The position numbers and the translations under genes are program-made. Under the pieces are notes generated by a model. It saw only the letters and a list, made by a program, of their open reading frames with translations, did not search any database and had not been told where the DNA came from. Shown in pieces: positions 10,173-61,914 of a stretch of DNA of 64,000 bases. The stretch is from a virus (lineage: Duplodnaviria; Heunggongvirae; Uroviricota; Caudoviricetes): IMG/VR virus record IMGVR_UViG_2706796243_000001; one strand, written 5' to 3'. Each line of letters starts with the position of its first letter. Position 1 is the stretch's first letter.

Positions 10173-10176
10173 GTAA

Positions 10177-13348: not shown

Positions 13349-13349
13349 T

Positions 13350-13673: not shown

Positions 13674-13687
13674 ATCTCCCCGTCTTT

Positions 13688-14395: not shown

Positions 14396-14571
14396 TCTGG
14401 TCTCCTTTCAACGTATCGCCATGTTTTCTTGTAGTGTGCAATAACTTCTGCTGTCTTGTCAAGAGGAACACCTGATTTTATAAGCCTCCACTCCCCATCC
14501 AACGAACAACCGTCGCTGCTCATCCTGCCATAAATACTGTACTTCATCTGACCCCCTTGCGTAATCTCCAT
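14365..14571 (-). CDS. hypothetical protein (68 aa)
   Basis: ORF. Confidence 0.35.
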   Translation of the reverse strand: MEITQGGQMKYSIYGRMSSDGCSLDGEWRLIKSGVPLDKTAEVIAHYKKTWRYVERRPECLGGLNEEN

Positions 14572-14667
14572 ATCTGTATTATGACATCAAGAAATAAAGT
14601 GTCAAGTGTTGACCGCAAATGAATTTGTTGGTATGCTCCCCACATAGATTTTAGAGGAGGGATTATT

Positions 14668-16071
14668 TTGAACTACAGTGATTTTGGCGTTACTTGTGCA
14701 GAAGAACTTGAGCAGGATGAGTGGAGTTTGTCGAGGCCGACCTTTGAGACACCAAAAGGCGGCGTGTTGACTGTTGTGGGGTATAATGGCAGGTATCGGA
14801 GAGAGAAAAAATACACTGTCCACTGTTCGGAATGTGAAAAGGATAAGGAATTATTTGGGGATGGGTTGTTTTCTACAATCAGATCAAATCTTTCCACATT
14901 GGGCCAAATCCCTTGTGGGTGCTCACATGCCTACAGGAGAAATAATTCTCAGTACAAGATCGTTATAGAAAGGAAACTGCCTGAAGGTATTACCTTCCAC
15001 CCGGCTAATCTTTTATCCCCAATAAGGTCTAAAACCAGAATAACACTTGTATGTGAGAAACACGGTGAGTTTAAGGATAGCCCTAGCAACATCTTGAATT
15101 TTGGTGGTCGTTGTGCCAAATGTGGATATGAGAGTGCTTCCAAAAAAAGGTCCCTTAATGAAGAAGACATATTTTGCAGATTGCCCGGCCACATGGAGTT
15201 CGTCGGGAGAAAGGATGGTAAATTTATCTTGAGGTGCAAAAGTCACGGTTTGGAGGTATCTGACAAGCATCTTTCTAGGATTTCTAAGGGTTGTAGATTG
15301 TGTGGTAATGAAAGAACCTCTTTAGCAAGAGCGGTTGATGAAGAGCAACTTATTGAAAGATGTTTATCAGCCTGTATCTCAAAAGGTGCAGGTTATGATA
15401 AGTTGGTCTACTCTCCACGAGGTGTTTTTTACTCTTCACTCTATATTACCTGCCAAAAGCATGGCACTTTATGCAAGTCAGGGTCTTCGTTGGTAAATTT
15501 CATACACAAGGGTGACAAGGGGTTTTGCTGGGAGTGCAGAAGAGAAGCAATCCGTGAGAAGAGATGGTTGAAAGATCTGAAAGCCAGGGTTGTAGATTTT
15601 TGTAACCGGGTGGGTGTATCCTTCTTGCGTTTTGAAAAAATAAATGGTGTTTCAAGCTGTTTGCGACTACTGTGCAGTGAGCACGGTGAGTACACTACAA
15701 GCTACGGAAGCCTTAGACAGCTCTCTGGATGTCCATCATGCGCAGGTCATTCTCAACGGCAGTGTTATTTGCATCAGGTTTTCGACCAAGCGACACCTCA
15801 AGGTATTAAATTCGGGATAGCAAAGGATTGGGTGGTGAGATTAAGGAATTTGAACAATAAGAATCTCTTTCAAATGGAAAACTTGGGTGTTTGGGAATTT
15901 GATACAGTGTATAGCTGTAAGGCCGCAGAGAGAGAATGTAAACAAACCCTTAAAACAGGTGTCCTTTCCGCCCGTGAGATGAAAGATGGTTGGACAGAGA
16001 CCGTCTCTGTGCTAGACTTAGAAAAAGTCATCGCCATTTATGAAAAACATGGCGGCAAACGCATAAAATAA
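14668..16071 (+). CDS. protein with five tandem C-x2-HG...C-x2-C zinc-ribbon repeats fused to a C-terminal T5orf172/MUG113 (GIY-YIG-related) domain
   Basis: Strong RBS GAGGAGGG. The C..HGxF...C..CG module repeats five times. The C-terminus reads IKFGIAKD..RLRNLN...DGWTETVSV, matching the T5orf172 pattern KIG.T.....Rl..l......dGwTE.F. It is a plus-strand gene inside a minus-strand block. Confidence 0.6.
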   Translation: MNYSDFGVTCAEELEQDEWSLSRPTFETPKGGVLTVVGYNGRYRREKKYTVHCSECEKDKELFGDGLFSTIRSNLSTLGQIPCGCSHAYRRNNSQYKIVIERKLPEGITFHPANLLSPIRSKTRITLVCEKHGEFKDSPSNILNFGGRCAKCGYESASKKRSLNEEDIFCRLPGHMEFVGRKDGKFILRCKSHGLEVSDKHLSRISKGCRLCGNERTSLARAVDEEQLIERCLSACISKGAGYDKLVYSPRGVFYSSLYITCQKHGTLCKSGSSLVNFIHKGDKGFCWECRREAIREKRWLKDLKARVVDFCNRVGVSFLRFEKINGVSSCLRLLCSEHGEYTTSYGSLRQLSGCPSCAGHSQRQCYLHQVFDQATPQGIKFGIAKDWVVRLRNLNNKNLFQMENLGVWEFDTVYSCKAAERECKQTLKTGVLSAREMKDGWTETVSVLDLEKVIAIYEKHGGKRIK

Positions 16072-16086
16072 CAAGAGGAGAATAGT

Positions 16087-16398
16087 ATGCTTTCATTAGA
16101 AGATAAAGGTGGGCGTCCAGACCGTAACGAACCAGATCAACGTGTTCGCCAGGATACCATTTGCCTGATATACGGATTTAGCCCAGAGAATCCTTTGACA
16201 GGGCAGTTGAACGGGAGGGAATGTTACGTTATCCAAAGGTCGCAACTTGGACCGGACAGGATTCCTTATGGCCCTGATGAGATGTGGTTCGAATGCCACG
16301 TAAGGGGTGTTCCGGTCACACCCGATCTCCCAATACATCACCTAATGCTTCTTGATGACTCGGACAGACTGGTGATTGAAAAATTATCCATTCAATAG
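16087..16398 (+). CDS. hypothetical protein (103 aa)
   Basis: GGAGAATAGTATG RBS; co-oriented with the 14668 gene. Confidence 0.4.
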   Translation: MLSLEDKGGRPDRNEPDQRVRQDTICLIYGFSPENPLTGQLNGRECYVIQRSQLGPDRIPYGPDEMWFECHVRGVPVTPDLPIHHLMLLDDSDRLVIEKLSIQ

Positions 16399-16405
16399 AT
16401 AAAAG

Positions 16406-16430
16406 AAAACCCGCTCAAGGCGGGTTTTCT
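16406..16430. terminator. bidirectional rho-independent terminator AAAACCCGC-TCAAG-GCGGGTTTT
   Basis: Perfect hairpin flanked by A and T runs between convergent genes. Confidence 0.7.
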
Positions 16431-16924
16431 TATGCACTAAGGACTATAACTTTCTCTTTGTTGGCAGAAACATACTGCTCAACAAGCTTACCAGACAGAA
16501 TCCTTTCAAGAAGCCTACCGGGGAACCTACCAAACTTCTTCATCAGTAAATCGAAGTCAACACCTTTAGTCATTCTCAGCATAGCTGCCTCCTCATCAGT
16601 TGGGGAGGCGGGATCAAGGAACATATCCCTGCTGTAAACTTCTTTATCACCTATATAAACATTGTCAGGGTATACCCAGATATGTTCATCCTTGTTTGTG
16701 ACCATTTTAAAGATTTGCTCATCCTTACCAGGACTTCTTGTTACTATCAGCTTTGGGTAGATAATACCATCAACTACTGAGGTGTGTTTTCCCTGCACAG
16801 TAAGGATTACCGACCATTCAGATCCTGAGTTAACCCCAGACACTGCACCTGCAATACCGGGCAATCCGCAAATCATTTGGTGATTTGTATCTCTGACAAA
16901 CGATCTTATTAACTCTTTTTGCAT
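16430..16924 (-). CDS. hypothetical protein (164 aa)
   Basis: ORF; no motif recognised. Confidence 0.5.
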   Translation of the reverse strand: MQKELIRSFVRDTNHQMICGLPGIAGAVSGVNSGSEWSVILTVQGKHTSVVDGIIYPKLIVTRSPGKDEQIFKMVTNKDEHIWVYPDNVYIGDKEVYSRDMFLDPASPTDEEAAMLRMTKGVDFDLLMKKFGRFPGRLLERILSGKLVEQYVSANKEKVIVLSA

Positions 16925-17304
16925 AGGGTCTCCAAATCCTTAATCCATTGGAACTTATCAGTGTAAATCATCTGGTTCTTTTTGCTACGGTTTAATTTTG
17001 CGGGGATGACCTGGATGTTATCACCACAGTTAAGGCCAGAAACAATCTTTGCACGGAGGGGCAGCATGTGGTCGGACTCCCAACGGATGCCCGTTTCACG
17101 CATCCTCTCGTTGCAAAGAGTGTTGGCCTCTTCCCTGACGAAGATGTCCCATTCACTGTTCATAGTTGCACGTTTTTCTGCCTCAATACGGTCAAGGCGG
17201 ATCTGAAGCTGCCGTGCCTTACCCTCTGGTGTGGAACGACGCAAGCGATCTATTTCCCGTCTACGGGCAGCGTACATTTTGTAGTAATCTCCTCTGTCTC
17301 TCAC
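16909..17304 (-). CDS. HNH endonuclease-domain protein
   Basis: WESDHMLPL...CGDNIQVIPAKLNRSK matches the HNH His-Me finger DH..P.......N....C..CNR.K. Confidence 0.55.
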   Translation of the reverse strand: MRDRGDYYKMYAARRREIDRLRRSTPEGKARQLQIRLDRIEAEKRATMNSEWDIFVREEANTLCNERMRETGIRWESDHMLPLRAKIVSGLNCGDNIQVIPAKLNRSKKNQMIYTDKFQWIKDLETLCKKS

Positions 17305-17313
17305 AAAATCTCC

Positions 17314-17871
17314 TCAAAATAATGGATAAAAGTATACAAGAATGCTGATAATTGTATAAATAATAAACACTGCGAAGAATATTTTGTTTGGAGGGTTTCT
17401 GAACCAGTCTTTTATACGGTAACCCCACCCAAGCGACTTCTTGTGCTCGTTTATTACTCTGTCGATAGTCCTGTAAAGGTCTCTTATGGCGCTCTCAAAC
17501 CCCTCATAATGGTCAAAAGCCTCTTCAAGGTCCCTTGTGTCAAGTTTACCCATGTCACCGACACGGAATGTGTATGTCATTGGGTTTTGCGAATCTACTC
17601 CACGAGTTACTTCCAGTCGCCCTACACGAATGGTATAAAGGATGCTGTTTTTAGCATCCCTGATAATAAGAACTCGTTCATCCGCAGCATATTTACGAAC
17701 AAGTGCGATACAACCTTTTGAGTTTTCTATAAAACCCTTTTCCAGCAGGGTGTGCCAGTGCTCTTGTAGGGTAGGGTGTTCTCGAACCAATTTCTGAAAC
17801 ATACTACCTCCTATCATATTATTAACCACCATTTTATCACGGATAGCCTCAATTATACATAGGTGCAGCAT
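17314..17871 (-). CDS. hypothetical protein (185 aa), N-terminal TM helix
   Basis: ORF. Confidence 0.5.
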   Translation of the reverse strand: MLHLCIIEAIRDKMVVNNMIGGSMFQKLVREHPTLQEHWHTLLEKGFIENSKGCIALVRKYAADERVLIIRDAKNSILYTIRVGRLEVTRGVDSQNPMTYTFRVGDMGKLDTRDLEEAFDHYEGFESAIRDLYRTIDRVINEHKKSLGWGYRIKDWFRNPPNKIFFAVFIIYTIISILVYFYPLF

Positions 17872-17883
17872 GTTTCAGATTAA

Positions 17884-18114
17884 TCAACACTTTACAGAGC
17901 ACTTATCGCATGGACAAGACAACCCGTGGAAACATAAACCACCATCTTTTCGAATACCAGTGCCACCGCACTGTGGACATGCGTCATGAAGGCATTTTGA
18001 ATTTACACCAACAAGTTCACCAACCTTTTTAAGGTCATCACCAACGGAGGTAGGTATGGAGAACCTCTTCTTCAGGATCTCAGCCTGCTCTGGAGTTAAA
18101 AGTCCGTAGCTCAT
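17884..18114 (-). CDS. small Cys-rich (zinc-ribbon) protein (76 aa)
   Basis: CPQCGGTG...C.C..C. Confidence 0.4.
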   Translation of the reverse strand: MSYGLLTPEQAEILKKRFSIPTSVGDDLKKVGELVGVNSKCLHDACPQCGGTGIRKDGGLCFHGLSCPCDKCSVKC

Positions 18115-18472
18115 TCCAACTCCTTCAATTCAAGCCAGCAAGAGAAGTCACTCACCCACTCACCAATCCCGTCCATTTCTTCAGGGAACTCCTCTGGTGA
18201 TTTCTCATGGTCGTTTTTATAGTCCTGACGATATTGCTCAAGCAATTCCTTCTGCTTCTCAATGAATTCTTCAATTTTCATTTCGTCTCCTCATTACATA
18301 ATGAAACAGGGCAGCAAGGGGCCATGCAAAACCGACTGCGAAGCATATCTCCGACCAATCATGATCTGTTCTGGCCTTGTATACCTGGCGGAGAACTTTA
18401 TCGTTCTCCATCTTTACAGAATACACCACTGCAACAATTGCGTACAGAACACCTAACAATCCTACAATGGCT

Positions 18473-46515: not shown

Positions 46516-46633
46516 GGGCGAAACCGCCCATGACTAAAAGTGTATCCTTTGCTGAAACCAGAGTCGGTACTGCGAACCCGAAGATGAAGCACAAGAAAAC
46601 AAAAAGTCCAACACCATTCAGGTAATATTTCAT
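46430..46633 (-). CDS. hypothetical membrane protein (67 aa)
   Basis: Two TM helices; lies immediately after the SPFH gene, as HflC/NfeD-like pairs commonly do. Confidence 0.35.
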   Translation of the reverse strand: MKYYLNGVGLFVFLCFIFGFAVPTLVSAKDTLLVMGGFALVFSAPVVVWYWLRKVFIKRGGVNAAKS

Positions 46634-46947
46634 TAGTTGCTCCCGCGACCAAACAGAATATCGGCTTCTGTCATCTGCTCAACCTGCTCTTCCAGGTCTT
46701 TACGCTTTTTACCTGCTTGATACTGGCGATCAAATTCTGCGTTAATCAAGGTCTTGATGAACTTAGGATCGTAGTTGTGGCTGTCTTTTTCGACGGCAAC
46801 AATGTCTTTGAACTGGCTTGCCGCATCTTTCTGAGCGATTTTGGCATCAACACCTTCCTGAACAACCTTCTTCAGGCGTTCACGCTCAACAGCGTCAGAA
46901 GGCAGGGTGTTTTTCAGTTCTACTTTGATTTTAGGCATACGTGGCAT
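46633..46947 (-). CDS. hypothetical protein (104 aa)
   Basis: ORF; charged. Confidence 0.45.
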   Translation of the reverse strand: MPRMPKIKVELKNTLPSDAVERERLKKVVQEGVDAKIAQKDAASQFKDIVAVEKDSHNYDPKFIKTLINAEFDRQYQAGKKRKDLEEQVEQMTEADILFGRGSN

Positions 46948-47015
46948 AGTTTTGTTTCTCCTCTGTTTGTTTAGTCAGTTAAGTATAACTATTTAAATAT
47001 TTTTGTCAAACACTT

Positions 47016-47246
47016 TTACGAATCAATTCCTACAATCTTTCCACCTATTGCTTCGATCTGGGCGATGTAGGTAGGAAGATTTTCCAGACTACATTCATAC
47101 GCGAATTTTTTGGTATTCCCCCAACGTCGCTTCATAGTGAAGCGAAGCATATATCGTGCTGTGGGGCCGCGATTAATCATCGTAATACCAAGACGCTTCA
47201 ACATGTCCCGAACTTCTTTGATCGTGTTTTCGTACTTATCTTCCAC
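47016..47246 (-). CDS. hypothetical protein (76 aa)
   Basis: ORF. Confidence 0.4.
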   Translation of the reverse strand: MEDKYENTIKEVRDMLKRLGITMINRGPTARYMLRFTMKRRWGNTKKFAYECSLENLPTYIAQIEAIGGKIVGIDS

Positions 47247-47300
47247 CAGTTTCTCCTCTCTGTCTTGATGGGGTCCATTATATAGACCCCCTCTTTATTG

Positions 47301-47993
47301 TCAAGCGATAATTTTCGGTTCTACGAAAGTGGTTGGCTTCATGATCTTGCCTTTACTATCGAAGAACACAATATGTTCACCACTACGCACAGCAGTTACA
47401 GAGTTGTAACGTCCTTTGGAGCGTATTTCAATCTCCTTGCATTCAGCAGTCAGCAACTCGTCATCAGTGTACAGATGAAGGGTTGGATGAACATCGCGAA
47501 GTTGTGCGATTGTAGGGTACTTAGAATCGTTTGACGTAAGCACTTGGCGCATATTGTAGTCCAAGTTAATATCTAATCGATAGCATAACGCTACAGACCG
47601 CTCAAGAACAGCACGAACAGATTCAATGGATAATGGTGTATTGAAAATGAGTTCTACCATCTCACCAATGTTGAACTGTACCATCCCATCAGGCTTCATT
47701 GCTTTTTCCCAACGAATACCAGAAGATTCAAGCAACCAGAAAGCATAGGACGAGACGACAAAGAGATCGCAAGCACCATCTACAACCTCGATACGATTGC
47801 CATCTTCAAGAGCCTTAACAAGCTCTTTGAATTCTTCTTCAACGAAAGAGAATTGCAAATCAATCGGAGTAGCCTTACCGCCGCGAGCGACACGAGCAAT
47901 ATGGTTCCATTGGGCTACATGACGACCATATTCAACAAGGTCTTTCGGTTTTGTCATTGACAGTAGGGTTTCATAAGTTACGCCGAAGTTCAT
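47301..47993 (-). CDS. MazG-like nucleoside triphosphate pyrophosphohydrolase (tentative)
   Basis: EEEFKELVKALEDGNRIEVVDGACDLFVV resembles the MazG E..EL...........E.GD core. Confidence 0.4.
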   Translation of the reverse strand: MNFGVTYETLLSMTKPKDLVEYGRHVAQWNHIARVARGGKATPIDLQFSFVEEEFKELVKALEDGNRIEVVDGACDLFVVSSYAFWLLESSGIRWEKAMKPDGMVQFNIGEMVELIFNTPLSIESVRAVLERSVALCYRLDINLDYNMRQVLTSNDSKYPTIAQLRDVHPTLHLYTDDELLTAECKEIEIRSKGRYNSVTAVRSGEHIVFFDSKGKIMKPTTFVEPKIIA

Positions 47994-48838: not shown

Positions 48839-50121
48839 GTTAATGAATCAACTTCTCGTACACTCTGCCCTACAGGGAACTGAGGAACACCGTCGTCAGT
48901 CCTTGCTTGGAATGTGAAGTTGATGAACTTACCGACCAGAAGTAACATTCTCGCTTGAGAACGTTCTTCACGCGTCCCCTTCATCTTACAGTTAAATCTG
49001 GTTCCGTCTTTTTCTTCGCAGAGGAGAACGCCCTCACCGTTTTTGTCCTCCACAGAGTCCAACACCTTCGCTTCACCATCCTGGAACAGCTTCCATTTCT
49101 GAAGGTCGGAAGATCGCTGACCGAATTCATACACGCCTTTGAAGTTGCGGATAATAACACCTTCATAACCCTCTTGCATGTATCGCCCAATGAACCGCTT
49201 AACCGCATCTTCATTCAGGACAAACTCACCACGAACAACATTTATTTTTGGTGCATTGACCTCACAATCAAGTGAATACATCACGCTAACAAGATCAGAT
49301 AGTCGGTTTTTATCATGGCTCTCTGAATGCCACGGGCTGTTTGCGTTTACAGGAATATCGAAAATGTGATATTCAAGGTCCAAACTTGAGTAACCGCCAT
49401 ATCGGTCAACATCTTTCACCGGTTCAATACTTACATCGTATTCATCACCATCAAAATCTTTCCATACTTGCTCACCGTTGTCAATAGCTTTCTGATAGCG
49501 TTTCAGATCTGATTGGTAATCCTTTTCAATCTCAACCTCGATCTGCTCAGGTGTACGCCACTTCTTAGCCAGAGCAACAATCTTCTGTAAGCTCAGACCA
49601 TGAATATATAGTTCACCATCAAATTTGTCAAACCCAGTATGCTCTGCAAGTTCTTTTGTCTGCTGCAACAATGCACCTTGAACAGGGTACGTCTTGTTTC
49701 CGCGACTATTAAATACTGGGATACCATCTTTGTCAAGAGTTACAAGGGCGCGTACCCCATCAAGCTTAGGCTGCACATAAGCAGGGTAAACTAATGCTTT
49801 TGAACGTTTAATTGCATCGTGTGCGAGCATGGGAGAGAAGTTCTCCTCAGTCTGTAACGCCTCTTTTGTCTCACGATAACCAAGGCGTACTTGCTTCTCC
49901 CATTTTGATCGCGCTTCAAGCACAGCCTGAAATGCAGCAGTTGTTTGATTAGCACGACCAACATTTTTCATTTCACATTTGGTACGTTTTTGCTGTACCT
50001 TTCCATTTTCTTTACCAAACTCAACAACTACCTCATCGCCCTCTGTTCTAACATTCCAGACCTGATAAGATCCGTCCTTGTTAATGGCGTACAGTGTTGG
50101 GGTATCTAAAGCAATCGACAT
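48820..50121 (-). CDS. ATP-dependent DNA ligase
   Basis: Motif I KLDGVRAL (KxDG) and later nucleotidyltransferase motifs; 433 aa. Confidence 0.8.
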   Translation of the reverse strand: MSIALDTPTLYAINKDGSYQVWNVRTEGDEVVVEFGKENGKVQQKRTKCEMKNVGRANQTTAAFQAVLEARSKWEKQVRLGYRETKEALQTEENFSPMLAHDAIKRSKALVYPAYVQPKLDGVRALVTLDKDGIPVFNSRGNKTYPVQGALLQQTKELAEHTGFDKFDGELYIHGLSLQKIVALAKKWRTPEQIEVEIEKDYQSDLKRYQKAIDNGEQVWKDFDGDEYDVSIEPVKDVDRYGGYSSLDLEYHIFDIPVNANSPWHSESHDKNRLSDLVSVMYSLDCEVNAPKINVVRGEFVLNEDAVKRFIGRYMQEGYEGVIIRNFKGVYEFGQRSSDLQKWKLFQDGEAKVLDSVEDKNGEGVLLCEEKDGTRFNCKMKGTREERSQARMLLLVGKFINFTFQARTDDGVPQFPVGQSVREVDSLTWEPVY

Positions 50122-50897
50122 TATTTCTCCTTACCTTGTAATGCTGTCTTACATTCAAGATGATCTTCCACAATCTTGATGAAATTGTTGTTGCTGAAAG
50201 CCTCTACAGCACCACAACGGAATTGCATAACACCATGAGCATCATACTGCTCTTGCTCAAGATAGTTGATACGTGGGTTTACCACAAGCACCTTTGTTCC
50301 TCTACGAACAGCAGGAAACAACTCCCAGTTGAAGTTGATGACTGTATTTGAGCATCCGACAACGATCACCATATCTTCATTGGTAAGGGTGTCAAGGATG
50401 TCATACATCCTGCTGTATTCTGGTGCAAATTCACCAAAGAACACAACATTGGGCTTACACCATTTATACTGATCAGGATCAACCTCGTTATAGCCTACAT
50501 CAATAATCTCCGGCTTTCCTTTCGGGTTGTCCTTGACAATGATTTCCTTCAGGTATCCATGAATGTAGACCGTATCCTCTTTCGGCACACCAGCACGTTC
50601 CAAAAGATCATCAACGTTGGTGGTCAAGTTAACAACCTGCCCTGGATAACGCTGGAACCACTCTGCAACGCGAAGGTGAGCCAGGTTCGGATGAACAGTC
50701 GGCAGTTCAGCACGACGCTTATTGTAAAACATGTGGGTTTTATGGTAGAAGTTTCCACGGAATGCGTGGATATTGCAAACCTCTTCCAGATCGTATTCAT
50801 CCCACAACGCCTTACCTGTTGACTCATCAGTACGGAAAGTTCGAACACCACTCTCAGCAGAGAAACCAGCACCAGAAATAACAATCAAACGTCTCAC
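50121..50897 (-). CDS. Sir2-family NAD-dependent protein deacylase / ADP-ribosyltransferase
   Basis: GAGFSAESGVRTFR Rossmann NAD-binding motif typical of sirtuins. Confidence 0.8.
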   Translation of the reverse strand: MRRLIVISGAGFSAESGVRTFRTDESTGKALWDEYDLEEVCNIHAFRGNFYHKTHMFYNKRRAELPTVHPNLAHLRVAEWFQRYPGQVVNLTTNVDDLLERAGVPKEDTVYIHGYLKEIIVKDNPKGKPEIIDVGYNEVDPDQYKWCKPNVVFFGEFAPEYSRMYDILDTLTNEDMVIVVGCSNTVINFNWELFPAVRRGTKVLVVNPRINYLEQEQYDAHGVMQFRCGAVEAFSNNNFIKIVEDHLECKTALQGKEK

Positions 50898-50906
50898 TTA
50901 TTTCTC

Positions 50907-51314
50907 CTATTGTAATTTCAACGAGTTACGCAGACGACGCTCTTGAGCATCTCGTGTTTCCTGCGGAACGCTGTGAATAGAATCGTTACCATGACGGTTT
51001 TCAACCACCAAGCTAACTACTTGATATCCATAATCATTAGCCAAGTCAAGGTACGGTTTAATTTCTTTCTCGCTGGTTGAGGTATTTGAAACGATCACGC
51101 GATCATAACCGATATCCATTGCCAGGCGAACGTTTTTCTGGCACCACTCGTGCGCCTTGTGCTGGTTTTCCTGCTTCCACCGGTACTCACCATCAACATA
51201 GTGGAACATATCCGCTTCGTAATGTGGAACATTGCTGTCATTCTTCAGGAGTTCTGCAACGGTTGATTTACCCGCACCAGAAACCCCACGAAGGATGATT
51301 AATGTCTTTTCCAT
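50907..51314 (-). CDS. P-loop polynucleotide 5'-kinase-like protein (T4 Pnk kinase-domain-like)
   Basis: Walker A GVSGAGKST; 135 aa; collinear with the N-terminal kinase domain of T4 Pnk. Confidence 0.5.
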   Translation of the reverse strand: MEKTLIILRGVSGAGKSTVAELLKNDSNVPHYEADMFHYVDGEYRWKQENQHKAHEWCQKNVRLAMDIGYDRVIVSNTSTSEKEIKPYLDLANDYGYQVVSLVVENRHGNDSIHSVPQETRDAQERRLRNSLKLQ

Positions 51315-51323
51315 ACCCTCTCC

Positions 51324-51689
51324 TCAGTAATTGTTTCTCAGAATGGTTACACCATACCGTGCCAAACTATCTTTTGCAAGCATAAACTTATGCCCTGCTG
51401 AAGGGTTCGATGTGTGAACGAACAGCTTGACCGGGCCAAAGAGCATCTTTCCGAAGACAATCTTTTCCTCAAGCGCCAGGAAACACCAATACCCATCATG
51501 ATCAGAATCTTCTCCAAGATCATTATCGAAGTGCCACTCCGTGACACGACGATATGGTTTTGACCGATTTTCGAGAAACTGAATAAAATCCTGCGAATTT
51601 TTTATCCACAAGGCATCTGGATGCCCGTAATTAACGGGGTCCCTTAAGTCATCGAGCCACACCAACATAAAAACGACTCCCACGGTCAA
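51324..51689 (-). CDS. hypothetical protein (121 aa)
   Basis: ORF. Confidence 0.4.
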   Translation of the reverse strand: MTVGVVFMLVWLDDLRDPVNYGHPDALWIKNSQDFIQFLENRSKPYRRVTEWHFDNDLGEDSDHDGYWCFLALEEKIVFGKMLFGPVKLFVHTSNPSAGHKFMLAKDSLARYGVTILRNNY

Positions 51690-52626
51690 AGAGATCTTCT
51701 ATCGTAAAATAATCTTCAACTATCTTACGACGCTGCTGTGAATCCATAGCTGACCAAGCATCTTTGGTGTAGTATTCACGAATATGGTCAAGCAATTCGT
51801 AATACTCTTCATCAATACGCTGCTTTGCGTTGTCTGGATGATCCCAGATCATATCCCACTTGTTATCACCACCACGCATCAAGAACTTCTTCGCCAGATA
51901 ATGAGGGGATTTGATTTTCAACAGTAAGCTGAACGGATAGTTTGGCTCACGCACAACATAACCTTCGTGGTTGCAATGCTTTGACATTTCAACAACATCT
52001 GAAAATTTAACCATCTGGTGAACTTCAGGACGCTTGAATTTAGTAACATTCGCGATTCCGTCAAGAGCACCTTCAGGCAGCATAAAACTTGTGCCGTCAC
52101 GGTTCTGGATTCGAGCACCAATCAGGTACGCCCCAGGCTCTTCATCAACAATATGCGGATCAGATGGATCACAGATTTCGAAGATGAACGTCGCCTTTGC
52201 ACTTTCTGTCCACTTAATGAAGTGCTCAATGTCATTGCATTCAGCAATGATGTGATTCTTCGCCAGAACTGCAAAGTCTGATTCCAGAGTTCCTGTAGTT
52301 GACACCACAAGCTGGCCCTTATACACACCAGCGGATGCCATAAATCCATTAACTTTACGAACTGCATCAACCACCTTGTCTGCCGGAAGGTCTGTGCCAT
52401 TTTCGAAGTGATTGAAAATCTTGGTGAAAGGCCAGATAACCACATTGTCATCCGAATCAACCACCATGCCACGGCATTCCAGGAGACGTGGATCTGTGTT
52501 CCACAGATTATCCCAGAAGACATTGTTTTTGTACTTCAGAACTGATAGGCCAGCGAACGGGCCATCAGTGTAAGTCTTCTTGGTGACCAGCTTTTTAGCG
52601 ACCAGATCGTCTACGTTAAAGAGCAT
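51649..52626 (-). CDS. ATP-dependent RNA ligase (Rnl2-like nucleotidyltransferase)
   Basis: Motif I KVNG, motif III FIFEIC, motif IV EGYVVR and motif V LKIKS are all present; 325 aa. Confidence 0.6.
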   Translation of the reverse strand: MLFNVDDLVAKKLVTKKTYTDGPFAGLSVLKYKNNVFWDNLWNTDPRLLECRGMVVDSDDNVVIWPFTKIFNHFENGTDLPADKVVDAVRKVNGFMASAGVYKGQLVVSTTGTLESDFAVLAKNHIIAECNDIEHFIKWTESAKATFIFEICDPSDPHIVDEEPGAYLIGARIQNRDGTSFMLPEGALDGIANVTKFKRPEVHQMVKFSDVVEMSKHCNHEGYVVREPNYPFSLLLKIKSPHYLAKKFLMRGGDNKWDMIWDHPDNAKQRIDEEYYELLDHIREYYTKDAWSAMDSQQRRKIVEDYFTIEDLFDRGSRFYVGVAR

Positions 52627-53252
52627 GTTTCTTCTCCCATTAGGATGTCATATTCAATTTTTGCAATAATATCTTGCAGCTTTTGTCTTATTCTAACATC
52701 CTGTTCTGAGATTGCAAGAGATTTTGCATGATTTCTCTTTTCAATTTGCCAAGCTTTATGAGCATCGGTTTCTGTTCTGAAACTACCAATATACCTTCCT
52801 TTGTAGTGGCAGTAAAATGTGTCCGCAAGGCGGGTTTCTTTGGAAACCCCTATCATATACTTGCCATTTTTCTTAACAGATGAAAAGAATTGATTACATT
52901 CTTGTGTTACGAATGCACAAGACTCTGGTGAGTATATTTTTCCGTCACCGAGGATATCCTTATCCAAGTAGAGGCCAGCAACATCCGTATCACCAACCCA
53001 CGAAATGAAATTGGAAAGGTAATACCATTCATCGCATACTGATACACTTTCATAATATTGGTGTTTATTGTGCTTTACAAGACATCTTCGCAACATATTT
53101 CGCCACTTAAGATATACAGGATGGAAAATCCTTTTTCCATCAACAACCCTCTGTGTAATTATATCAGAGTCATTGATACCAAGAGGGGAGCTAAGATCTT
53201 TTTTCATAACCATCTGCCTGATAATACGTTGTATTATACGGTGTCTCAACAC
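52611..53252 (-). CDS. freestanding homing-endonuclease-like protein with AP2 DNA-binding domain (paralog of 949..1536)
   Basis: YLKWRNMLRRC...YESVSVCDEWYYLSNF and GRYIGSFRTETDAHKAW; overlaps both neighbouring genes. Confidence 0.5.
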   Translation of the reverse strand: MLRHRIIQRIIRQMVMKKDLSSPLGINDSDIITQRVVDGKRIFHPVYLKWRNMLRRCLVKHNKHQYYESVSVCDEWYYLSNFISWVGDTDVAGLYLDKDILGDGKIYSPESCAFVTQECNQFFSSVKKNGKYMIGVSKETRLADTFYCHYKGRYIGSFRTETDAHKAWQIEKRNHAKSLAISEQDVRIRQKLQDIIAKIEYDILMGEETCSLT

Positions 53253-53547
53253 TGAAGCTTACCTGGCATAATTCCTGAGCCAAGTATGTCCCAAGTTCAA
53301 CAGCCATGTCAAGAATTTCATGTTCTGGTCGCTCAAAACGAGGATACTGCATGATACGCACAGTCATACCGTCTTCCACACCACCAGTATAAACATAAGT
53401 ACAAGGGGAAATCTGCACACATGCTCCCCTCATCACCCAGTGTCGGCAAAGATTTTCCGCCTGGTTGTAACTGCCAGCAATATGTATTGTGGCGTAAAAA
53501 GATTTTGATGTTTTCTTAGGCAAGAAATTGCGTTTTTGGTTGTGCAT
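53191..53547 (-). CDS. hypothetical protein (118 aa)
   Basis: ORF. Confidence 0.4.
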   Translation of the reverse strand: MHNQKRNFLPKKTSKSFYATIHIAGSYNQAENLCRHWVMRGACVQISPCTYVYTGGVEDGMTVRIMQYPRFERPEHEILDMAVELGTYLAQELCQVSFSVETPYNTTYYQADGYEKRS

Positions 53548-53556
53548 ACCATCTCC

Positions 53557-54150
53557 TCAGTGATGAATATCGTAAATAGGCTTTTTAAGGCACTCAGAAA
53601 CGGCCTCAAGCATCGTCAAAGGACGACCGTGGACATCCCAACCCACATCAAGGATTCGTCCACCAGGTGCCTTATATGAGCCGTGGCTATGTCCGTGGAG
53701 CATGACTGATCCGTGGTGTGCTTTATTCCAAGATGCAAACGGGTAGTGCGACATACACACCCGAACTTTTTCTTTTCCTGTGCTGAAATCAATTTCTTTA
53801 TAGTCAACAACTTCGTGACCAAACTCGCGAAATACCCGCTTTGTCGTGTGGTTGTCGTGGTTGCCACCAACCAAAATGATCTTTCCGTTGATTCGGCTAA
53901 GAATGTCACGAACCTTCGGCTCCACATGCTTACCATACGCGATCACAAAATCACCTAAATGTGCAACAACATCATCAGGTTTCACATGTTTGTTCCATGT
54001 TTTAACCATGTCGTCATTCATCTTGACAACACTCGCTGAATCTTCTTTCGGTCCGTACAGGTTTTTACGGAACTTATCACAGGATGGGAAACCAAGAATA
54101 TTGGTATGCCACCAATGTGTATCTGATGTTACATGATCGATATTAGTCAT
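53557..54150 (-). CDS. calcineurin-like metallophosphoesterase
   Basis: GDFVIAYG, GNHD and GHSH motifs. Confidence 0.7.
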   Translation of the reverse strand: MTNIDHVTSDTHWWHTNILGFPSCDKFRKNLYGPKEDSASVVKMNDDMVKTWNKHVKPDDVVAHLGDFVIAYGKHVEPKVRDILSRINGKIILVGGNHDNHTTKRVFREFGHEVVDYKEIDFSTGKEKVRVCMSHYPFASWNKAHHGSVMLHGHSHGSYKAPGGRILDVGWDVHGRPLTMLEAVSECLKKPIYDIHH

Positions 54151-54826: not shown

Positions 54827-55156
54827 TCAGAGCGTTATGAGAATCTCACTCAGATCCACCACACAATTATTACCTTCGATGTGCTCCACTGTCAAGTCTT
54901 TCATCTGAGTCACCACCACATTTGGTCTGCGTAGACGACCACGAACAGAGTCGTAGTAATTTCCAAACACCTCCTGTGCAGATTTACCATCTGGTAACAC
55001 CACACAAACTTTCTGATCCTTATTGCATTCATGAAAGACTTCACGTACCATCATCAATCGTGTGGTTTCTTCATCTGTAGGCATCGCCTTACGACGACTC
55101 TTACCACACACCATATCTCCAACAGCTTTAGCTTGTTTACTTGACAACATTAACAC
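54827..55156 (-). CDS. hypothetical protein (109 aa)
   Basis: First gene of the minus-strand block; divergent promoter region upstream. Confidence 0.45.
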   Translation of the reverse strand: MLMLSSKQAKAVGDMVCGKSRRKAMPTDEETTRLMMVREVFHECNKDQKVCVVLPDGKSAQEVFGNYYDSVRGRLRRPNVVVTQMKDLTVEHIEGNNCVVDLSEILITL

Positions 55157-55488
55157 TCTCCTCTAAAACGATAGGAGCATTGTACATGAACAAAACGAGA
55201 AGTCAACTCTTGACAACAGATTTTTGTTCATCCATACTGACCCAACTGACCCAACTGAGCCACTGGCTCTATGACTGTAGAATATATAGATCATACTTAA
55301 AGATCTTTTATATAGATCTTATGTTTTATTGTTTTGATTTTAAAAGATCATAAGTTAGTTTAATTGATAGGTTAGTATTGTATTCCTTTTTGGGAATAAT
55401 TAGACATTCCCGATTGGGAATAATTAGGTTGACATCTGCGTTACGTTGGTGTACATTCTAATTATATCTGTTCTGGAATAAATAGGAG

Positions 55489-55851
55489 ATGGTGGTGGAG
55501 ATAAAGATTGGTGATAACACTGTGAACATAAGGGATGGCTCTTACGTCACTATCCCGACACAGTGGCTTTTTGATGACCGTCTCTCACCACAAGATTTGC
55601 AAAGGTTGATAAAATTGTGGTGGAGGTATGATTACTTCAAGAGTTTAAACCCTGATGGTGGTGATGAGGTATTCTTTCCATCTCAAAAATCTTTGTGTCA
55701 TCTTTTTGGGTTGAGTGAGAAGTCACAACCGAAAGTATCAGAGTTCTTGACAAAGATAGAGTATCTTGGATACATTCGCCGCATACGCTCTGGTTTTCAA
55801 GATTCTAAAGGGAATGCAAAACCAAGGCATTACATAATTGTTAATAGATAG
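55489..55851 (+). CDS. winged-helix DNA-binding protein (120 aa)
   Basis: AGGAGA RBS; wHTH-like SQKSLCHLFGLSEKSQPKVSEFLTKIEYLGYIRRI. Confidence 0.5.
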   Translation: MVVEIKIGDNTVNIRDGSYVTIPTQWLFDDRLSPQDLQRLIKLWWRYDYFKSLNPDGGDEVFFPSQKSLCHLFGLSEKSQPKVSEFLTKIEYLGYIRRIRSGFQDSKGNAKPRHYIIVNR

Positions 55852-55859: not shown

Positions 55860-56420
55860 ATGCTTGAAGTTATAAAATCGAAAGAGATAAGTGCTTCTGA
55901 AAAGGTTCTTTTGATGTTTATGGGGTTGAATGGTGTTGGGGTTTATACTTACCAAGATTTCATAAACTCCACAGGGTTGAGTAGAGCCACTGTTGGTAGG
56001 TCACTCTCTTCTCTGTATGAAAAGGGTTGGATCGAGAAGAAAACCGCCATCTCTGACAGTGGAGCGGAGAGTATTCAGTACAGTATTTCGTTTGGTGATT
56101 CTACAAATCCAAAATTTGAAAGAACCTGCTACGTTTATGTTCAAGAGCTTGCAGGCCCAGGCTTAACAATCGGAAAAGTTGGTATAGCATTTAATGTTTT
56201 CGAAAGAATGCGCCAACAATCAAAGAAAAGTTTGTTTCAGCACAAACTGATGTACTCCAAGCTGTTCAAAAGTTATGCTGAAGCTGCCAAAGTTGAGCAG
56301 ATTGTGTTGAGTGCGATCCCACAATTTGTTTGTGAAAAAGATTGGTTACCTGACGGCTTCACAGAGACAATCCACAAGCAAGATATTTTAAAGGCTATTC
56401 AAATAATTGAGGAGAAATAA
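55860..56420 (+). CDS. winged-helix DNA-binding protein (186 aa)
   Basis: YQDFINSTGLSRATVGRSLSSLYEKGWIEKK, a MarR/Rep-like wHTH. Confidence 0.5.
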   Translation: MLEVIKSKEISASEKVLLMFMGLNGVGVYTYQDFINSTGLSRATVGRSLSSLYEKGWIEKKTAISDSGAESIQYSISFGDSTNPKFERTCYVYVQELAGPGLTIGKVGIAFNVFERMRQQSKKSLFQHKLMYSKLFKSYAEAAKVEQIVLSAIPQFVCEKDWLPDGFTETIHKQDILKAIQIIEEK

Positions 56421-57222
56421 AATGAGTTTAGAACTTCGTCTGAACAACCTGATAGTCCCTGTTGATCGCCTTACATTCAAGGGTGGTGAAGAACAGGTTA
56501 AGATCGATTTAAGTTATGCACCAAAAGGTCACATTGGTTTTGTTGACATCACAGCAAAAATCAAGACATCTGCGGATGTTATGGCTCTTGCTCTGCTGGC
56601 AGATGCTTGCTCTCGACTTGATAACATTGATATTCATGCACAGTATGTCCTTCACCTGCCGTACATCCCCTATGCGCGTCAAGATCGTGTTATGCAACCT
56701 GGCGAGGCATTGTCCATCAAGGTTTTTGCAAACATCGTTAACTCACTTGGGTTTGATAAGGTTATCGTAGATGACCCGCACAGTGATGTTTCTGCTGCAC
56801 TTCTGAACAATGTTCGTATTCGGCACCAACATGAACTTGCAGCATCCTATAGTGATGTACTTGCTGGTAGGGATGTTACGATTATCGCACCAGATGCCGG
56901 AGCACGTAAAAAAGCGCAGAAGGTTTCTGAACATCTCCGTCTTCCGCTTGTTGAAGCAGGTAAGGTCCGTGATGTAAAAACTAACGAGATCACAGGTACT
57001 GCTGTCTTCGGGGATGTTACTGGTCGTGAATGTGTCATCGTTGATGACATTTGTGATGGTGGTCGCACATTCATCGCCCTTGCACAAGCGTTGAAGGAGA
57101 ATGGTGCAAAACGTGTTATCCTTTATGTAACACACGGTATTTTCTCATTCGGCAAGCAGGTCATTCTTGATGGTGGTGTAGATGAAATTTATGCATATCA
57201 CGACTGGACAGAAAACTTCTAA
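56407..57222 (+). CDS. ribose-phosphate pyrophosphokinase (PRS)-like protein; candidate ADPR-PP synthetase (Adps-like)
   Basis: PRTase PRPP-binding loop VIVDDICDGGRTF; shorter than bacterial Prs at 271 aa; lies directly upstream of the NAMPT-like gene. Confidence 0.7.
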   Translation: MRRNKMSLELRLNNLIVPVDRLTFKGGEEQVKIDLSYAPKGHIGFVDITAKIKTSADVMALALLADACSRLDNIDIHAQYVLHLPYIPYARQDRVMQPGEALSIKVFANIVNSLGFDKVIVDDPHSDVSAALLNNVRIRHQHELAASYSDVLAGRDVTIIAPDAGARKKAQKVSEHLRLPLVEAGKVRDVKTNEITGTAVFGDVTGRECVIVDDICDGGRTFIALAQALKENGAKRVILYVTHGIFSFGKQVILDGGVDEIYAYHDWTENF

Positions 57223-57289
57223 AATTTCTTGACATAGTATAAAACGGGTGCAAGAATGCACCCACAAATTTCACAGAGGAGAAACAAAC

Positions 57290-58984
57290 ATGCTGCATAA
57301 AGAAAGCCCGATTACTTTCGCTGATTTTTACAAACCGAGTCACATCTCGATGTATGACAAACGTTCTGAAATTGTTCAGGACAATATGACCGCCCGTAAC
57401 GCAAAGCACTTTATCCACTTCGCAGACAATGACCACCGTGTGATGTTTGCTGGTATTCAGGGATTCATCAAGTGGTTCCTGATCGATATGTTTAATGAAA
57501 ACTTTTTCAAACGCTCAAAGGAAGAAGCGATTTCAGATTATAAAGAAATTTGCGAACTGAGTATTGGACCGGGTATGGTGGAAATGTGGGGTTTTGAGAA
57601 GCTACACGATCTTGGTTATCTACCTCTGGAAATCCGTGCTTTACCAGAAGGCACTCTGGCTCCGGTGCAGGTTCCAATGTTCACTATCCAGAATACCCAT
57701 CCGGATTTTTACTGGTTACCGAACTTCCTGGAAAGTGTGATGTCAGCAGAAACCTGGAAAACAATCACAACTGCAACAACATTCTGGCAATATCGTAAAC
57801 TGTCTGAGAAATGGGCTGCTGAAACATGTGATAATAATCTGCATGTTCCTTTCCAGAACCACTGTTTTGCATATCGTGGTGAAGGTGGGACACATGACGC
57901 AGCACAGAGTGAATTTGGTCAACTGATCAGTTCTATGGGTACTGATACCATTCCCGCGATTGTGTATGCAAATCGTTATTACAACATGAAAGGTAAGTTC
58001 GTTTCTGGGTCTATCCCTGCATCTGAACACAGTGTTGCAACAACCAATATCGGTTTCATCGTTAATGAGATTGAAGAAAACACAGCAAATCAAGAATTCC
58101 TGAGCCTTGATCATAAACGTTATCTTGCAGAAGTCGAGTTCCTGAAGCGCTACATCACGGAAATTTTTCCGAAAGGTTTTGTTTCCTACGTTGCAGATAG
58201 CTATGACTTCTGGGCGATTATCACGAAAGCAGCAGCAATCTTGAAACATGAAATTCTTTCTCGTGAAGGTCGTGTTGTATTTCGTCCTGACTCAGGTATC
58301 CCTGAGCATATTATTGCCGGGTATCGCTGCTTGGGTGAGTTCGATGACTGGTCAGATGCTCACACAGCATTACAGGATGATTCAAACTCTGAAGTTGCTA
58401 AGATTGAGGGTAAATATTATCGCATTCTGGTAGATGATGAAGATAATGCATTCTTTGATTTCCAAGAGTCAGGTCTTGAAGATCATGAGGTAAAAGGTGC
58501 AGTAGAATGTTTGTGGGAAATCTTTGGTGGAGAAGTTAACTCCAAAGGGTACAAAGTTCTTGATAGTCATGTCGGCCTGATCTACGGTGACTCTATCACT
58601 GTTGCTCGTGCAAAAGATATCTTTGAACGACTGAAAGATCGTGGCTTTGCATCGAGTAACATCGTGTACGGTGTTGGTTCTTACACAACCCAGTACACAA
58701 CTCGTGATTCACTGGGTATGGCTGTGAAAGCAACGGGTGCAGTTATCGACGGCAAGCAGATCATGGTTGTCAAAGAGCCGAAGACTGACCTCGGTAAGAA
58801 ATCTGCAAAAGGTTTCCTGAAGGTTATTCGTGATGAAGACAATCAGTTAAAACTGGTTGACAATCTGGAGGTGCATGAGGTACAGTCTCGTGATAACGAA
58901 CTCCGTTGTGTCTTCCGAGACGGTCAGTTGATGATTGACGAAGACCTGACACAGATTCGTGATCGGGCAGCTTCTCAGCTTTAA
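57290..58984 (+). CDS. nicotinamide phosphoribosyltransferase (NAMPT/NadV)-like protein; candidate Namat
   Basis: GAGGAG RBS before ATG 57290; ~565 aa NAMPT-family protein with G.DS..YG.GS blocks; terminator follows. Confidence 0.75.
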   Translation: MLHKESPITFADFYKPSHISMYDKRSEIVQDNMTARNAKHFIHFADNDHRVMFAGIQGFIKWFLIDMFNENFFKRSKEEAISDYKEICELSIGPGMVEMWGFEKLHDLGYLPLEIRALPEGTLAPVQVPMFTIQNTHPDFYWLPNFLESVMSAETWKTITTATTFWQYRKLSEKWAAETCDNNLHVPFQNHCFAYRGEGGTHDAAQSEFGQLISSMGTDTIPAIVYANRYYNMKGKFVSGSIPASEHSVATTNIGFIVNEIEENTANQEFLSLDHKRYLAEVEFLKRYITEIFPKGFVSYVADSYDFWAIITKAAAILKHEILSREGRVVFRPDSGIPEHIIAGYRCLGEFDDWSDAHTALQDDSNSEVAKIEGKYYRILVDDEDNAFFDFQESGLEDHEVKGAVECLWEIFGGEVNSKGYKVLDSHVGLIYGDSITVARAKDIFERLKDRGFASSNIVYGVGSYTTQYTTRDSLGMAVKATGAVIDGKQIMVVKEPKTDLGKKSAKGFLKVIRDEDNQLKLVDNLEVHEVQSRDNELRCVFRDGQLMIDEDLTQIRDRAASQL

Positions 58985-58990: not shown

Positions 58991-59011
58991 AGCCCCTTCG
59001 GGGGCTTTTCT
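58991..59011 (+). terminator. rho-independent terminator AGCCCC-TTCG-GGGGCT + TTTTCT
   Basis: Hairpin plus T-run after the NAMPT-like gene. Confidence 0.7.
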
Positions 59012-59023
59012 GATAGGTAGGCT

Positions 59024-59311
59024 ATGGAAAATCCATGCAAGTGGCATGAAGTCCCAGTACGAGATTGCCTTACGTGTAATAACACACCAACAAACCCGTA
59101 TTATATTAAGGAGCCTAAGATGTTTGGACCAGTAATGATGGAGTGCAAAGTCTGTAAACAGGAATTTGAAGCTGATCTTGAGGCCCACGGCCCAGGCGTT
59201 TGCATCATTTCCTTTGGCTGCGGTCATCAGATGAACGCCAGCAAGGATAAAACAGTGTGGGTAAACACTAAAACAGGAAAAATTGATTTGGAAGAGGAAT
59301 CCTGTGCGTAG
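59024..59311 (+). CDS. Zn-finger protein (95 aa)
   Basis: CLTCNN...CKVCKQ...CGH. Confidence 0.4.
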   Translation: MENPCKWHEVPVRDCLTCNNTPTNPYYIKEPKMFGPVMMECKVCKQEFEADLEAHGPGVCIISFGCGHQMNASKDKTVWVNTKTGKIDLEEESCA

Positions 59312-59795
59312 TTTAACGCAAGAGTATCTCAAAACCCGTTTGCATTACGATCCGCAGACAGGCATTTTCACATGGTTAAAAGAGGGTTTTTCAAGAAAGG
59401 AAGACGCTACCCGCCTTGGTGGAACAGAGTGTTCTTGCGTTGGAAAGCACGGTTATGTTGTAATACGTATTGATGGAAAACTATACTTGGCTCATAGACT
59501 TGCATATCTCTATATGACTGGAGAAATGCCTGAATTTGTTGACCATGATGACAGGATAAGGACCAACAATGCGTGGGTAAACCTGAAGAAAGCAACACGC
59601 GAAATGAATAATAGGAATGTCACTGCATCTTCAAACACTGGACATGTTAACATAACGTGGGTTGAAAAACGAAAGCATTATGTTGTGACAATAAAATGGG
59701 GAACTGAAAAACGAAATAAAACATTCAGGAACCTTGATGATGCAATATTTTGGCGAGATAGAGAAAAGGAGATATTGAGTGCGAAATCCAGTTAG
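59283..59795 (+). CDS. HNH homing endonuclease with AP2 domain
   Basis: HRLAYLYMTGEMPEFVDHDDRIRTNNAWVNL (HNH_3) followed by HVNITWVEKRKHYVVTIKWGTE (AP2). Confidence 0.65.
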   Translation: MIWKRNPVRSLTQEYLKTRLHYDPQTGIFTWLKEGFSRKEDATRLGGTECSCVGKHGYVVIRIDGKLYLAHRLAYLYMTGEMPEFVDHDDRIRTNNAWVNLKKATREMNNRNVTASSNTGHVNITWVEKRKHYVVTIKWGTEKRNKTFRNLDDAIFWRDREKEILSAKSS

Positions 59796-61069: not shown

Positions 61070-61146
61070 GGTTCTGTAGCTTAGTTGGTTAGAGCGCTTC
61101 CCTCATAAGGAAGAGGTCGCAGGTTCAATTCCTGCCAGAACTACCA
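61070..61146 (+). tRNA. tRNA-Met (anticodon CAU; could also be an Ile lysidine type), CCA encoded
   Basis: Cloverleaf: acceptor GGTTCTG/CAGAACT, D-arm AGCTTAGTTGGTTAGAGC, anticodon arm CTTCC-CTCATAA-GGAAG, T-arm GCAGG-TTCAATT-CCTGC. Confidence 0.8.
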
Positions 61147-61838: not shown

Positions 61839-61914
61839 GGGGTATTAACACAGCGGTTAGTGTAGCGGCCTCTTAAGCCGAAGGTCGAAGGTTCGAATCC
61901 TTCATGCCCCACCA
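61839..61914 (+). tRNA. tRNA, probable Lys (anticodon CUU), CCA encoded
   Basis: Acceptor GGGGTAT/ATGCCCC (one G-U pair), D-stem ACAC/GTGT, anticodon loop CTCTTAA (one mismatch in the stem), T-arm GAAGG-TTCGAAT-CCTTC. Confidence 0.6.

Follow-up and report, generated by a model that had tools for sequence, protein, structure and literature searches.

Host defences of the Thoeris, DSR, SIR2-HerA and SEFIR types deplete NAD+, and about 4% of sequenced phages carry a NAD+ reconstitution pathway, NARP1, with which the depletion can be undone. NARP1 was discovered from pairs of neighbouring phage genes, one encoding Adps, a relative of the ribose-phosphate pyrophosphokinases (Prs), and the other Namat, of the nicotinamide phosphoribosyltransferase (Nampt) family (Osterman et al. 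2024, bioRxiv 10.1101/2024.02.11.579819). Here we consider a pair of this kind, adps and namat, in a 64,000-nucleotide stretch of viral DNA (IMG/VR record IMGVR_UViG_2706796243_000001; hereafter the window), which matches positions 83746-147745 of the record of Salmonella phage SSE121 (NC_027351/JX181824; Seunavirus, Vequintavirinae) on the plus strand with 0 mismatches. The pair is, with high probability, a two-gene NARP1 module of this virulent phage, identical in phage PVP-SE1.

The function of NARP1 has been established on homologues, in vivo with phage Bas63 and in vitro with enzymes of SPbetaL1, DyoEdafos and Paenibacillus. Deletion of Bas63 genes 79-80 sensitised the phage to SIR2-HerA, and the intermediate ADPR-PP was found in infected cells only when both the Bas63 operon and the defence were present (Osterman et al. 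2024). The purified SPbetaL1 enzymes convert ADP-ribose (ADPR) and ATP to ADPR-PP, and ADPR-PP and nicotinamide to NAD+ (Osterman et al. 2024). By analogy the same two activities, and the same effect against defences, are inferred for SSE121. A SIR2, TIR or SEFIR-type host defence would split NAD+ into ADPR and nicotinamide; Adps would then move pyrophosphate from ATP to the 1'' position of ADPR, giving ADPR-PP; and Namat would exchange the pyrophosphate of ADPR-PP for nicotinamide, yielding NAD+ directly, without passing through nicotinamide mononucleotide (NMN).

The probable adps-namat pair of SSE121 and PVP-SE1

Both proteins have already been catalogued. In Osterman et al. 2024, Table S1 lists GU070616_00120 and JX181824_00249 (MSLELRL...) as Adps homologues with 'Yes' for a nearby Namat, while Table S2 lists GU070616_00119 and JX181824_00250 (MLHKESPITF...) as 'Adps-associated' Namat homologues, and in each case the sequence is that of the exact protein encoded in the window. 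Because of these entries the finding is already known, and the present copy adds nothing new: it was catalogued in 2024 and agrees with sequence criteria published in 2026. Databases nevertheless still carry the outdated labels 'ribose-phosphate pyrophosphokinase', 'nicotinamide phosphoribosyl transferase' and, in NCBIfam, 'nicotinate phosphoribosyltransferase'.

The original prediction, made from the sequence alone, had named adjacent Prs-like and NAMPT-like genes within 56407-58984, and the two open reading frames (ORFs) are indeed found on the plus strand, at 56407-57222 and 57248-58984. Their lengths, 271 residues from a TTG and 578 from a GTG, hold as mechanical limits but not as likely real products: the likely true starts are the ATG codons with which the two genes begin in Table 1, each of which has GAGGAG 7-8 nt upstream and agrees with both the RefSeq annotation and the protein sequences in the published tables. 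The genes are adjacent and separated by a 67-nt gap, the proximity looked for in NARP1 being within 10 genes. The pair is closed, as had been foreseen, by a hairpin followed by TTTTCTG just beyond the namat stop codon. Terminator-like sites are weakly enriched overall (7 against 3.8 +/- 2.2 expected), and the terminator-like character of this one is suggested by its position and by 5/6 GC pairs in the stem.

The 3.4 kb around the pair is 100% identical to PVP-SE1. The idea of a recent cassette transfer between the two phages, raised by this identical block and the endonuclease-like genes that flank it, was rejected because SSE121 and PVP-SE1 are 99.0-99.8% identical across nearly the whole window. 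The sole part that is not near-identical, positions 12406-18278, has no match or 74% identity to PVP-SE1 and, set against the values elsewhere, is a segment replaced between the two phages.

Enzyme families of the two proteins

The second protein carries the clearest signature. It contains the NAPRTase-family domain PF04095, matches phrog_448 (1e-193) and scores 476 bits against NF006629, above the cut-off. Structures of SPbetaL1 Namat published in 2026 define a selectivity clamp that separates Namat enzymes, which prefer ADPR-PP, from Nampt enzymes, which use phosphoribosyl pyrophosphate (PRPP) (PMC12774641). An alignment of the window protein with KVP40 Nampt and three Namat proteins (Bas63, SPbetaL1 and FADO) served to map the clamp residues. 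The clamp-helix motif is present as GSYTTQYTTRD at residues 463-473 (58676-58708); in the alignment Y465 and Y469 correspond to F392 and Y396 of SPbetaL1, and T471-R472-D473 to T398-R399-D400. KVP40 Nampt has GGGLLQQLDRD at this site, with G and Q where the window protein has Y465 and Y469. All of the mapped core contacts to nicotinamide, ribose and phosphate are kept (D12, Y14, F193, R196, D219, A244, R332, D334, G433 and D434), as is the histidine of the EHS motif.

The second element of the clamp, a loop, is less telling. The published rule calls for Arg, Lys or Tyr at the third position and a stacking residue at or after it (PMC12774641). In the window protein K39-H40-F41 (57404-57412) aligns with K42-W43-F44 of Bas63 and K40-Y41-F42 of FADO, though the loop varies in length and its alignment is uncertain, so that we take the Lys-type loop as suggestive only; His is not among the residues the paper names, and in KVP40 too the aligned position is occupied by Lys.

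Similarity scores point the same way as the clamp helix. In blastp the window protein scores 400, 395 and 389 bits against the Namat proteins of SPbetaL1, Bas63 and FADO, compared with 149 bits against KVP40 Nampt. A search of structure sequences gives 421 bits (E 5.5e-125) for PDB 9w5x/9w5w, which have the SPbetaL1 Namat sequence, 181 bits for Xanthomonas Nampt and about 159 bits for human NAMPT. The window protein exceeds SPbetaL1 Namat by 73 residues, owing to two insertions (about residues 254-283 and 345-400, a net gain of about 24 and 47 residues); the in vivo validated Namat of Bas63 is likewise expanded at both sites.

Before 2024 the pair was usually annotated in Vequintavirinae as a conventional salvage route from PRPP to NMN, in which a true PRPP synthetase supplies a NadV-type Nampt and the NMN is adenylated by a phage NadR-like NMN adenylyltransferase (NMNAT) or by host enzymes, in effect a dispersed NARP2-like pathway. 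This explanation draws on several facts: the first protein passes the TIGR01251 cut-off and the second that of NF006629, Namat enzymes retain NMN-forming activity in vitro, and the SSE121 genome encodes an NMNAT domain (CTP_transf_like, joined to an AAA_28 kinase). Even so we regard it as unlikely. The Nampt-like protein has the Namat clamp motif rather than a Nampt-type sequence, and it scores far higher against validated Namat proteins than against KVP40 Nampt. In the survey of Osterman et al. 2024 Nampt proteins of the NARP2 clade occur in phages that lack a Prs homologue, and in the same work SPbetaL1 Adps gave a product only with ADPR (the paper's sentence names PRPP at this point, its figure legend ribose-5-phosphate). 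Bas63, moreover, could still defeat the defence when its host had neither pncC nor nadR (Osterman et al. 2024). Finally, the NMNAT of SSE121 is of NadR type, lies near a PnuC gene and fits a separate NARP3 module (see below), with no NatV-type NMNAT-Nudix protein in the genome.

The first protein comprises the Prs domains PF13793, PF00156 and PF14572 and matches phrog_619 (4e-95); for both proteins the family matches greatly exceed what chance would give. Its flexible loop, Lys-x-Arg at 56962-56970, is K181-V-R183, which aligns with K162-Q-R164 of SPbetaL1 Adps, so that the catalytic lysine expected of an Adps, the one altered by mutation in the SPbetaL1 enzyme (K162), is in place. The intact phosphoribosyltransferase (PRTase) loop that had been predicted is present as VIVDDICDGGRTF at residues 205-217 of the 266-residue protein (57034-57072). 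Against profiles the protein passes only the cut-off of the broad subfamily TIGR01251 (160 bits). Its best scores with Prs equivalog or E. coli-type models are 118-130 bits, compared with cut-offs of 296-297; the three validated Adps proteins also fall far under all Prs equivalog cut-offs, while E. coli Prs passes with 533 bits. In pairwise comparison it is 42% identical to Bas63 Adps (164 bits), and scores 182 bits against Bas61 and 195 bits against Aeromonas P19, compared with 91 bits against E. coli Prs. The motif [DE]PHS[DN]V is present in 4/4 aligned Adps proteins and is also visible in the Bas61 and Aeromonas P19 sequences; this is an observation of our own on a small set and no established determinant.

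The abundance of nucleotide-metabolism genes in the window (NrdAB, NrdDG and ThyX) could point to a quite different role for the first gene, namely the general supply of PRPP for purine and pyrimidine synthesis beside the ribonucleotide reductases and thymidylate synthase, unrelated to defence. We consider this scarcely credible, given that adps is tightly paired with a Namat bearing the clamp motif and that its product has diverged from class I Prs and is shorter at both ends (by about 20 N-terminal and about 35 C-terminal residues), reaching only 130 bits with the E. coli-type model, for which the cut-off is 297.

Four points weigh against NARP1. The score of the window Adps against SPbetaL1 Adps, the sole one characterised in vitro, is 93 bits and thus not above that of E. 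coli Prs, and its score against FADO Adps is lower still (73 bits). No ADPR-specific residues have been established because no Adps structure exists. We found no published biochemistry or genetics for the SSE121/PVP-SE1 pair. Lastly, a side route through NMN may operate, since SPbetaL1 Namat makes NMN from PRPP in vitro and the phage encodes an NMNAT. Pairwise score was dropped as an independent test of Adps against Prs, as it separates the Adps proteins of enterobacterial phages from Prs (164-195 versus 91 bits) but fails for those of Bacillus phages. Since these scores are not decisive, the Adps assignment rests on the published tree and survey, the link to Bas63, synteny and the clamp motif of the partner. 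The NARP1 interpretation as a whole is nevertheless supported by the clamp motif, the catalytic residues, the Namat-type scores and the listing of both proteins in the published tables.

Other NAD+-related genes and the genomic surroundings

The absence of an NMNAT or Nudix partner from the window had been offered as an argument for NARP1. The absence itself was borne out: tblastn with the KVP40-type NatV of VH7D and with the phage's own NadR-like protein returned nothing in the window below E = 0.06, and there is no Nudix box in any frame. A gene annotated 'nucleotide pyrophosphohydrolase' (47301-47993) has a weak match to PRA-PH, a MazG-related fold, and is not a Nudix protein. In the rest of the SSE121 genome likewise neither a NatV-type gene nor a Nudix box was found (VH7D NatV tblastn, E >= 0.06). 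As an argument, though, the absence is weak, because genes for a NadR-like NMNAT/ribosylnicotinamide kinase and for a PnuC-family transporter lie elsewhere in the SSE121 genome (Table 1). A separate NMNAT elsewhere in the genome, which the original prediction had named as evidence that would count against it, does therefore exist; as a partner of the Nampt-like gene, however, it is less convincing than as part of a separate NARP3-like module.

NARP3, described in 2026, consists of a PnuC-like transporter and a NadR-like protein lacking the helix-turn-helix (HTH) domain, which together import nicotinamide riboside and convert it to NAD+ (PMC13464706); a PnuC/NadR operon had already been flagged in Supplementary Figure 3B of Osterman et al. 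2024. The two SSE121 genes lie about 90 kb from the adps-namat pair in another gene cluster, and six small genes stand between them, so that the adjacent arrangement of NARP3 is found neither in the window nor in the genome. PVP-SE1 carries both as well (L006:17275-18348 for the NadR-like gene and L006:20067-20795 for pnuC). Between the two phages the NadR-like protein shares only about 60% identity, though the window is about 99% identical, and it is about 36% identical to its counterparts in T5-like phages. A place in a second, independent NARP3-like module explains the NadR-like NMNAT better than partnership with the Nampt-like gene does, and the phage thus probably carries two NAD+-restoring modules.

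A compromise would be that the pair acts mainly as NARP1 while Namat also makes NMN from host PRPP and nicotinamide, the NadR-like enzyme then completing NAD+. SPbetaL1 Namat does synthesise NMN in vitro, at about half the rate of human Nampt (PMC12774641), the NadR-like NMNAT is present in both the SSE121 and PVP-SE1 genomes, and phage genomes that carry NadR together with NadV-family genes had been noted in 2022. When both substrates were offered, however, SPbetaL1 Namat preferred ADPR-PP over PRPP and made only NAD+ (Osterman et al. 2024), and the distance and separate cluster of the NadR-like gene also speak against such a division of labour, which we judge very unlikely.

The two accessories known from other NARP1 loci were also sought. 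In some phages NARP1 is extended by a Macro-domain phosphatase that acts on ADPR-1''-phosphate (NARP1-AP), but no Macro gene (PF01661, PF14519, PF20016) was found within two genes of the pair among the four flanking ORFs, two of them rescanned at E <= 1, and no RyR-domain accessory is present among the flanking ORFs. Taken over the pair's immediate neighbours and the window, the search for an NMNAT, Nudix, Macro or RyR partner was thus negative. About 70 kb from the pair SSE121 does encode a Tk.4-like Macro protein (Table 1), of a family found in 3009 phage records including T4.

With these genes in mind a wider scheme can be imagined for phages of the SSE121/PVP-SE1 type, a dispersed NAD+ restoration network with several inputs, comprising the NARP1 pair of the window, the unlinked and split NadR-like/PnuC pair, the unlinked Macro phosphatase and the NadR-like NMNAT. 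Within it NARP1 may use ADPR and nicotinamide while the NadR-like/PnuC pair imports nicotinamide riboside; the Tk.4-like Macro protein could act in trans as the phosphatase Adpp, converting ADPR-1''-P to ADPR and so defeating aRES; and the NadR-like NMNAT may complete NMN that Namat makes from PRPP. We put this forward tentatively, as a possible but not a likely arrangement. If true, the redundancy would help the phages to withstand defences based on the destruction or modification of ADPR. What is mildly new here lies outside the window, in that these Seunaviruses seem to join NARP1 to a split NARP3-like pair and a Macro phosphatase, neither of them linked to it. Phages like PVP-SE1 have been investigated for the biocontrol of Salmonella, and the several NAD+-restoring modules that they probably carry could shift their host range among strains defended by NADases.

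Table 1. Positions of the probable NARP1 pair, its flanking elements and related genes. Coordinates are those of the window unless the SSE121 record is named.
Feature	Coordinates	Strand	Remarks
adps, Prs-family, 266 aa	56422..57222	+	predicted ADP-ribose pyrophosphokinase (ADPR + ATP -> ADPR-PP + AMP); mechanical ORF from TTG 56407
namat, Nampt-family, 564 aa	57290..58984	+	predicted nicotinamide ADP-ribose transferase (ADPR-PP + nicotinamide -> NAD+ + PPi); mechanical ORF from GTG 57248
Intrinsic-terminator-like hairpin AGCCCC-TTCG-GGGGCT, then TTTTCTG	58991..59012	+	7 nt 3' of namat stop
Hairpin GGGTGCA-AGAA-TGCACCC in adps-namat gap	57244..57265	.	no T-run after it on + strand
Sigma-70-like promoter match TTGACA, 17 nt, TACATT	55429..55457	+	consensus match, 32 nt upstream of the cluster's first + ORF
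120-aa ORF, PVP-SE1 gp098 homologue, weak HTH/DnaD-like	55489..55851	+	phrog_8453 2.7e-56; phrog_186 2.7e-5
186-aa ORF, N-terminal winged-HTH, C-terminal endonuclease-like (cf. T5.141)	55860..56420	+	phrog_25806 7e-123; phrog_681 3.6e-18
Free-standing HNH endonuclease	59283-59795	+	PF13392; phrog_99 6e-46
NadR-like protein, 362 aa, without HTH; NMNAT (CTP_transf_like) + AAA_28 kinase	SSE121 record 49303-50391 (L011:7303-8391)	-	outside window
PnuC-family transporter	SSE121 record 46537-47250 (L011:4537-5250)	-	outside window
Tk.4-like 'phosphatase', 163 aa	SSE121 record 70623-71114 (L011:28623-29114)	-	outside window; Macro domain PF01661, 24.3 bits vs cut-off 22

The pair ends a short plus-strand cluster that starts after a divergent intergenic region near 55150-55490. 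The sigma-70-like match there is a possible promoter for the four-ORF unit, though it is not evidence of function, because 13 promoter-like sites occur in the region against 10.2 +/- 3.6 expected. The first ORF of the cluster, annotated in PVP-SE1 as gp098 and missing from the SSE121 RefSeq record, is a same-strand neighbour and no NARP1 component. The second matches no known NARP1 accessory. All of its HTH family matches lie below cut-off; among them the match to PF24409, 'wHTH-PRTase associated' (E 0.004, 17.6 bits against a cut-off of 27), was set aside as below threshold. Its stop codon falls inside the adps ribosome-binding region, which suggests translational coupling. Between adps and namat a promoter-like match (57229-57257; TTGACA, 17 nt, AAGAAT, extended TG) overlaps the 7-bp intergenic hairpin, and the combined stretch (57229-57265) might function as an internal promoter or as an RNA element. 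On the 3' side of the pair are a small Zn-ribbon-like ORF and the HNH endonuclease, and further on tRNA-Met (CAT) and tRNA-Lys (CTT) genes, at 61070-61146 and 61839-61914, mark the start of the phage tRNA region.

Elsewhere in the window there is a gene for a protein of the Sir2 family, a family of NAD+-using enzymes, in a phage that probably also rebuilds NAD+ (50121-50897, minus strand; PF02146 3.4e-22, phrog_2162 1e-111); it lies directly downstream of an ATP-dependent DNA ligase gene. Next to it, also on the minus strand, is an RNA-repair-like run of genes (50907-54150) encoding a small P-loop kinase (AAA_33/Zeta-toxin-like, 50907-51314), RNA ligase 1 (51649-52626), an HNH endonuclease and a metallophosphoesterase (53557-54150, phrog_547). 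A 1.7 kb interval between convergent gene blocks (9941-11631) has no annotated gene, contains only ORFs of <=82 residues and holds an 18-nt perfect inverted repeat (10638-10655 / 10839-10856); a comparable gap without annotation exists in PVP-SE1.

Comparison with described systems

Among the extended loci, NARP1-AP (Adps, the Macro phosphatase Adpp and Namat, as in Vibrio phage Gary) and the RyDEP-containing NARP1 loci share the core of Adps and Namat with the window, but differ in that the window pair has no Macro or RyR-domain gene within two genes.

NARP2 of Vibrio phage KVP40, made up of the Nampt NadV and the NMNAT-Nudix protein NatV, also restores NAD+ through a Nampt-family TIM-barrel enzyme with the same catalytic core. 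NadV is 27-33% identical to the window Namat but has no aromatic clamp; KVP40 depends on NatV and encodes no Prs-like partner, whereas the window pair does have one. The features of NARP2, a PRPP-preferring Nampt without aromatic clamp alongside a NatV-like gene and no Prs partner, are therefore not those of the window pair.

E. coli Prs (class I) shares with the window Adps a two-domain PRTase fold, the YARQDR motif, the Lys-x-Arg flexible loop and the DD acidic pair, with an overall identity of 27-31%. The window protein lacks the terminal residues mentioned above, has DPHSDVSAALL in place of DLHAEQIQGFF, and reads DGGRT in the 5-phosphate loop where E. coli Prs has DTGGT.

The Bacillus phage SPbetaL1 (Adps WIT26982, Namat WIT26983) has the same two-gene layout. 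Its Namat is 40-46% identical to that of the window, with the ligand-contacting core and the SCH motif conserved, although the clamp loop has Arg40 in SPbetaL1 and Lys39 in the window. Its Adps, 29-34% identical and no nearer than E. coli Prs, shares the catalytic lysine but has DDLSSFGGTF as PRTase loop compared with DDICDGGRTF in the window.

The last of the close systems is NARP1 of Bas63 (Escherichia phage JohannRWettstein). Bas63 is a Felixounavirus rather than a Seunavirus, the flanking genes are unrelated, and the clamp-loop residue after the lysine is Trp in Bas63 and His in the window Namat; its operon is also backed by deletion and metabolite evidence, while the SSE121 pair is known from sequence. 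Yet the gene order is the same, adps then namat; the Namat proteins are 40-43% identical and have a Lys-type clamp loop and the clamp helix GSY..QY.TRD in common; and both Adps proteins have the DDICDGGRTF loop.

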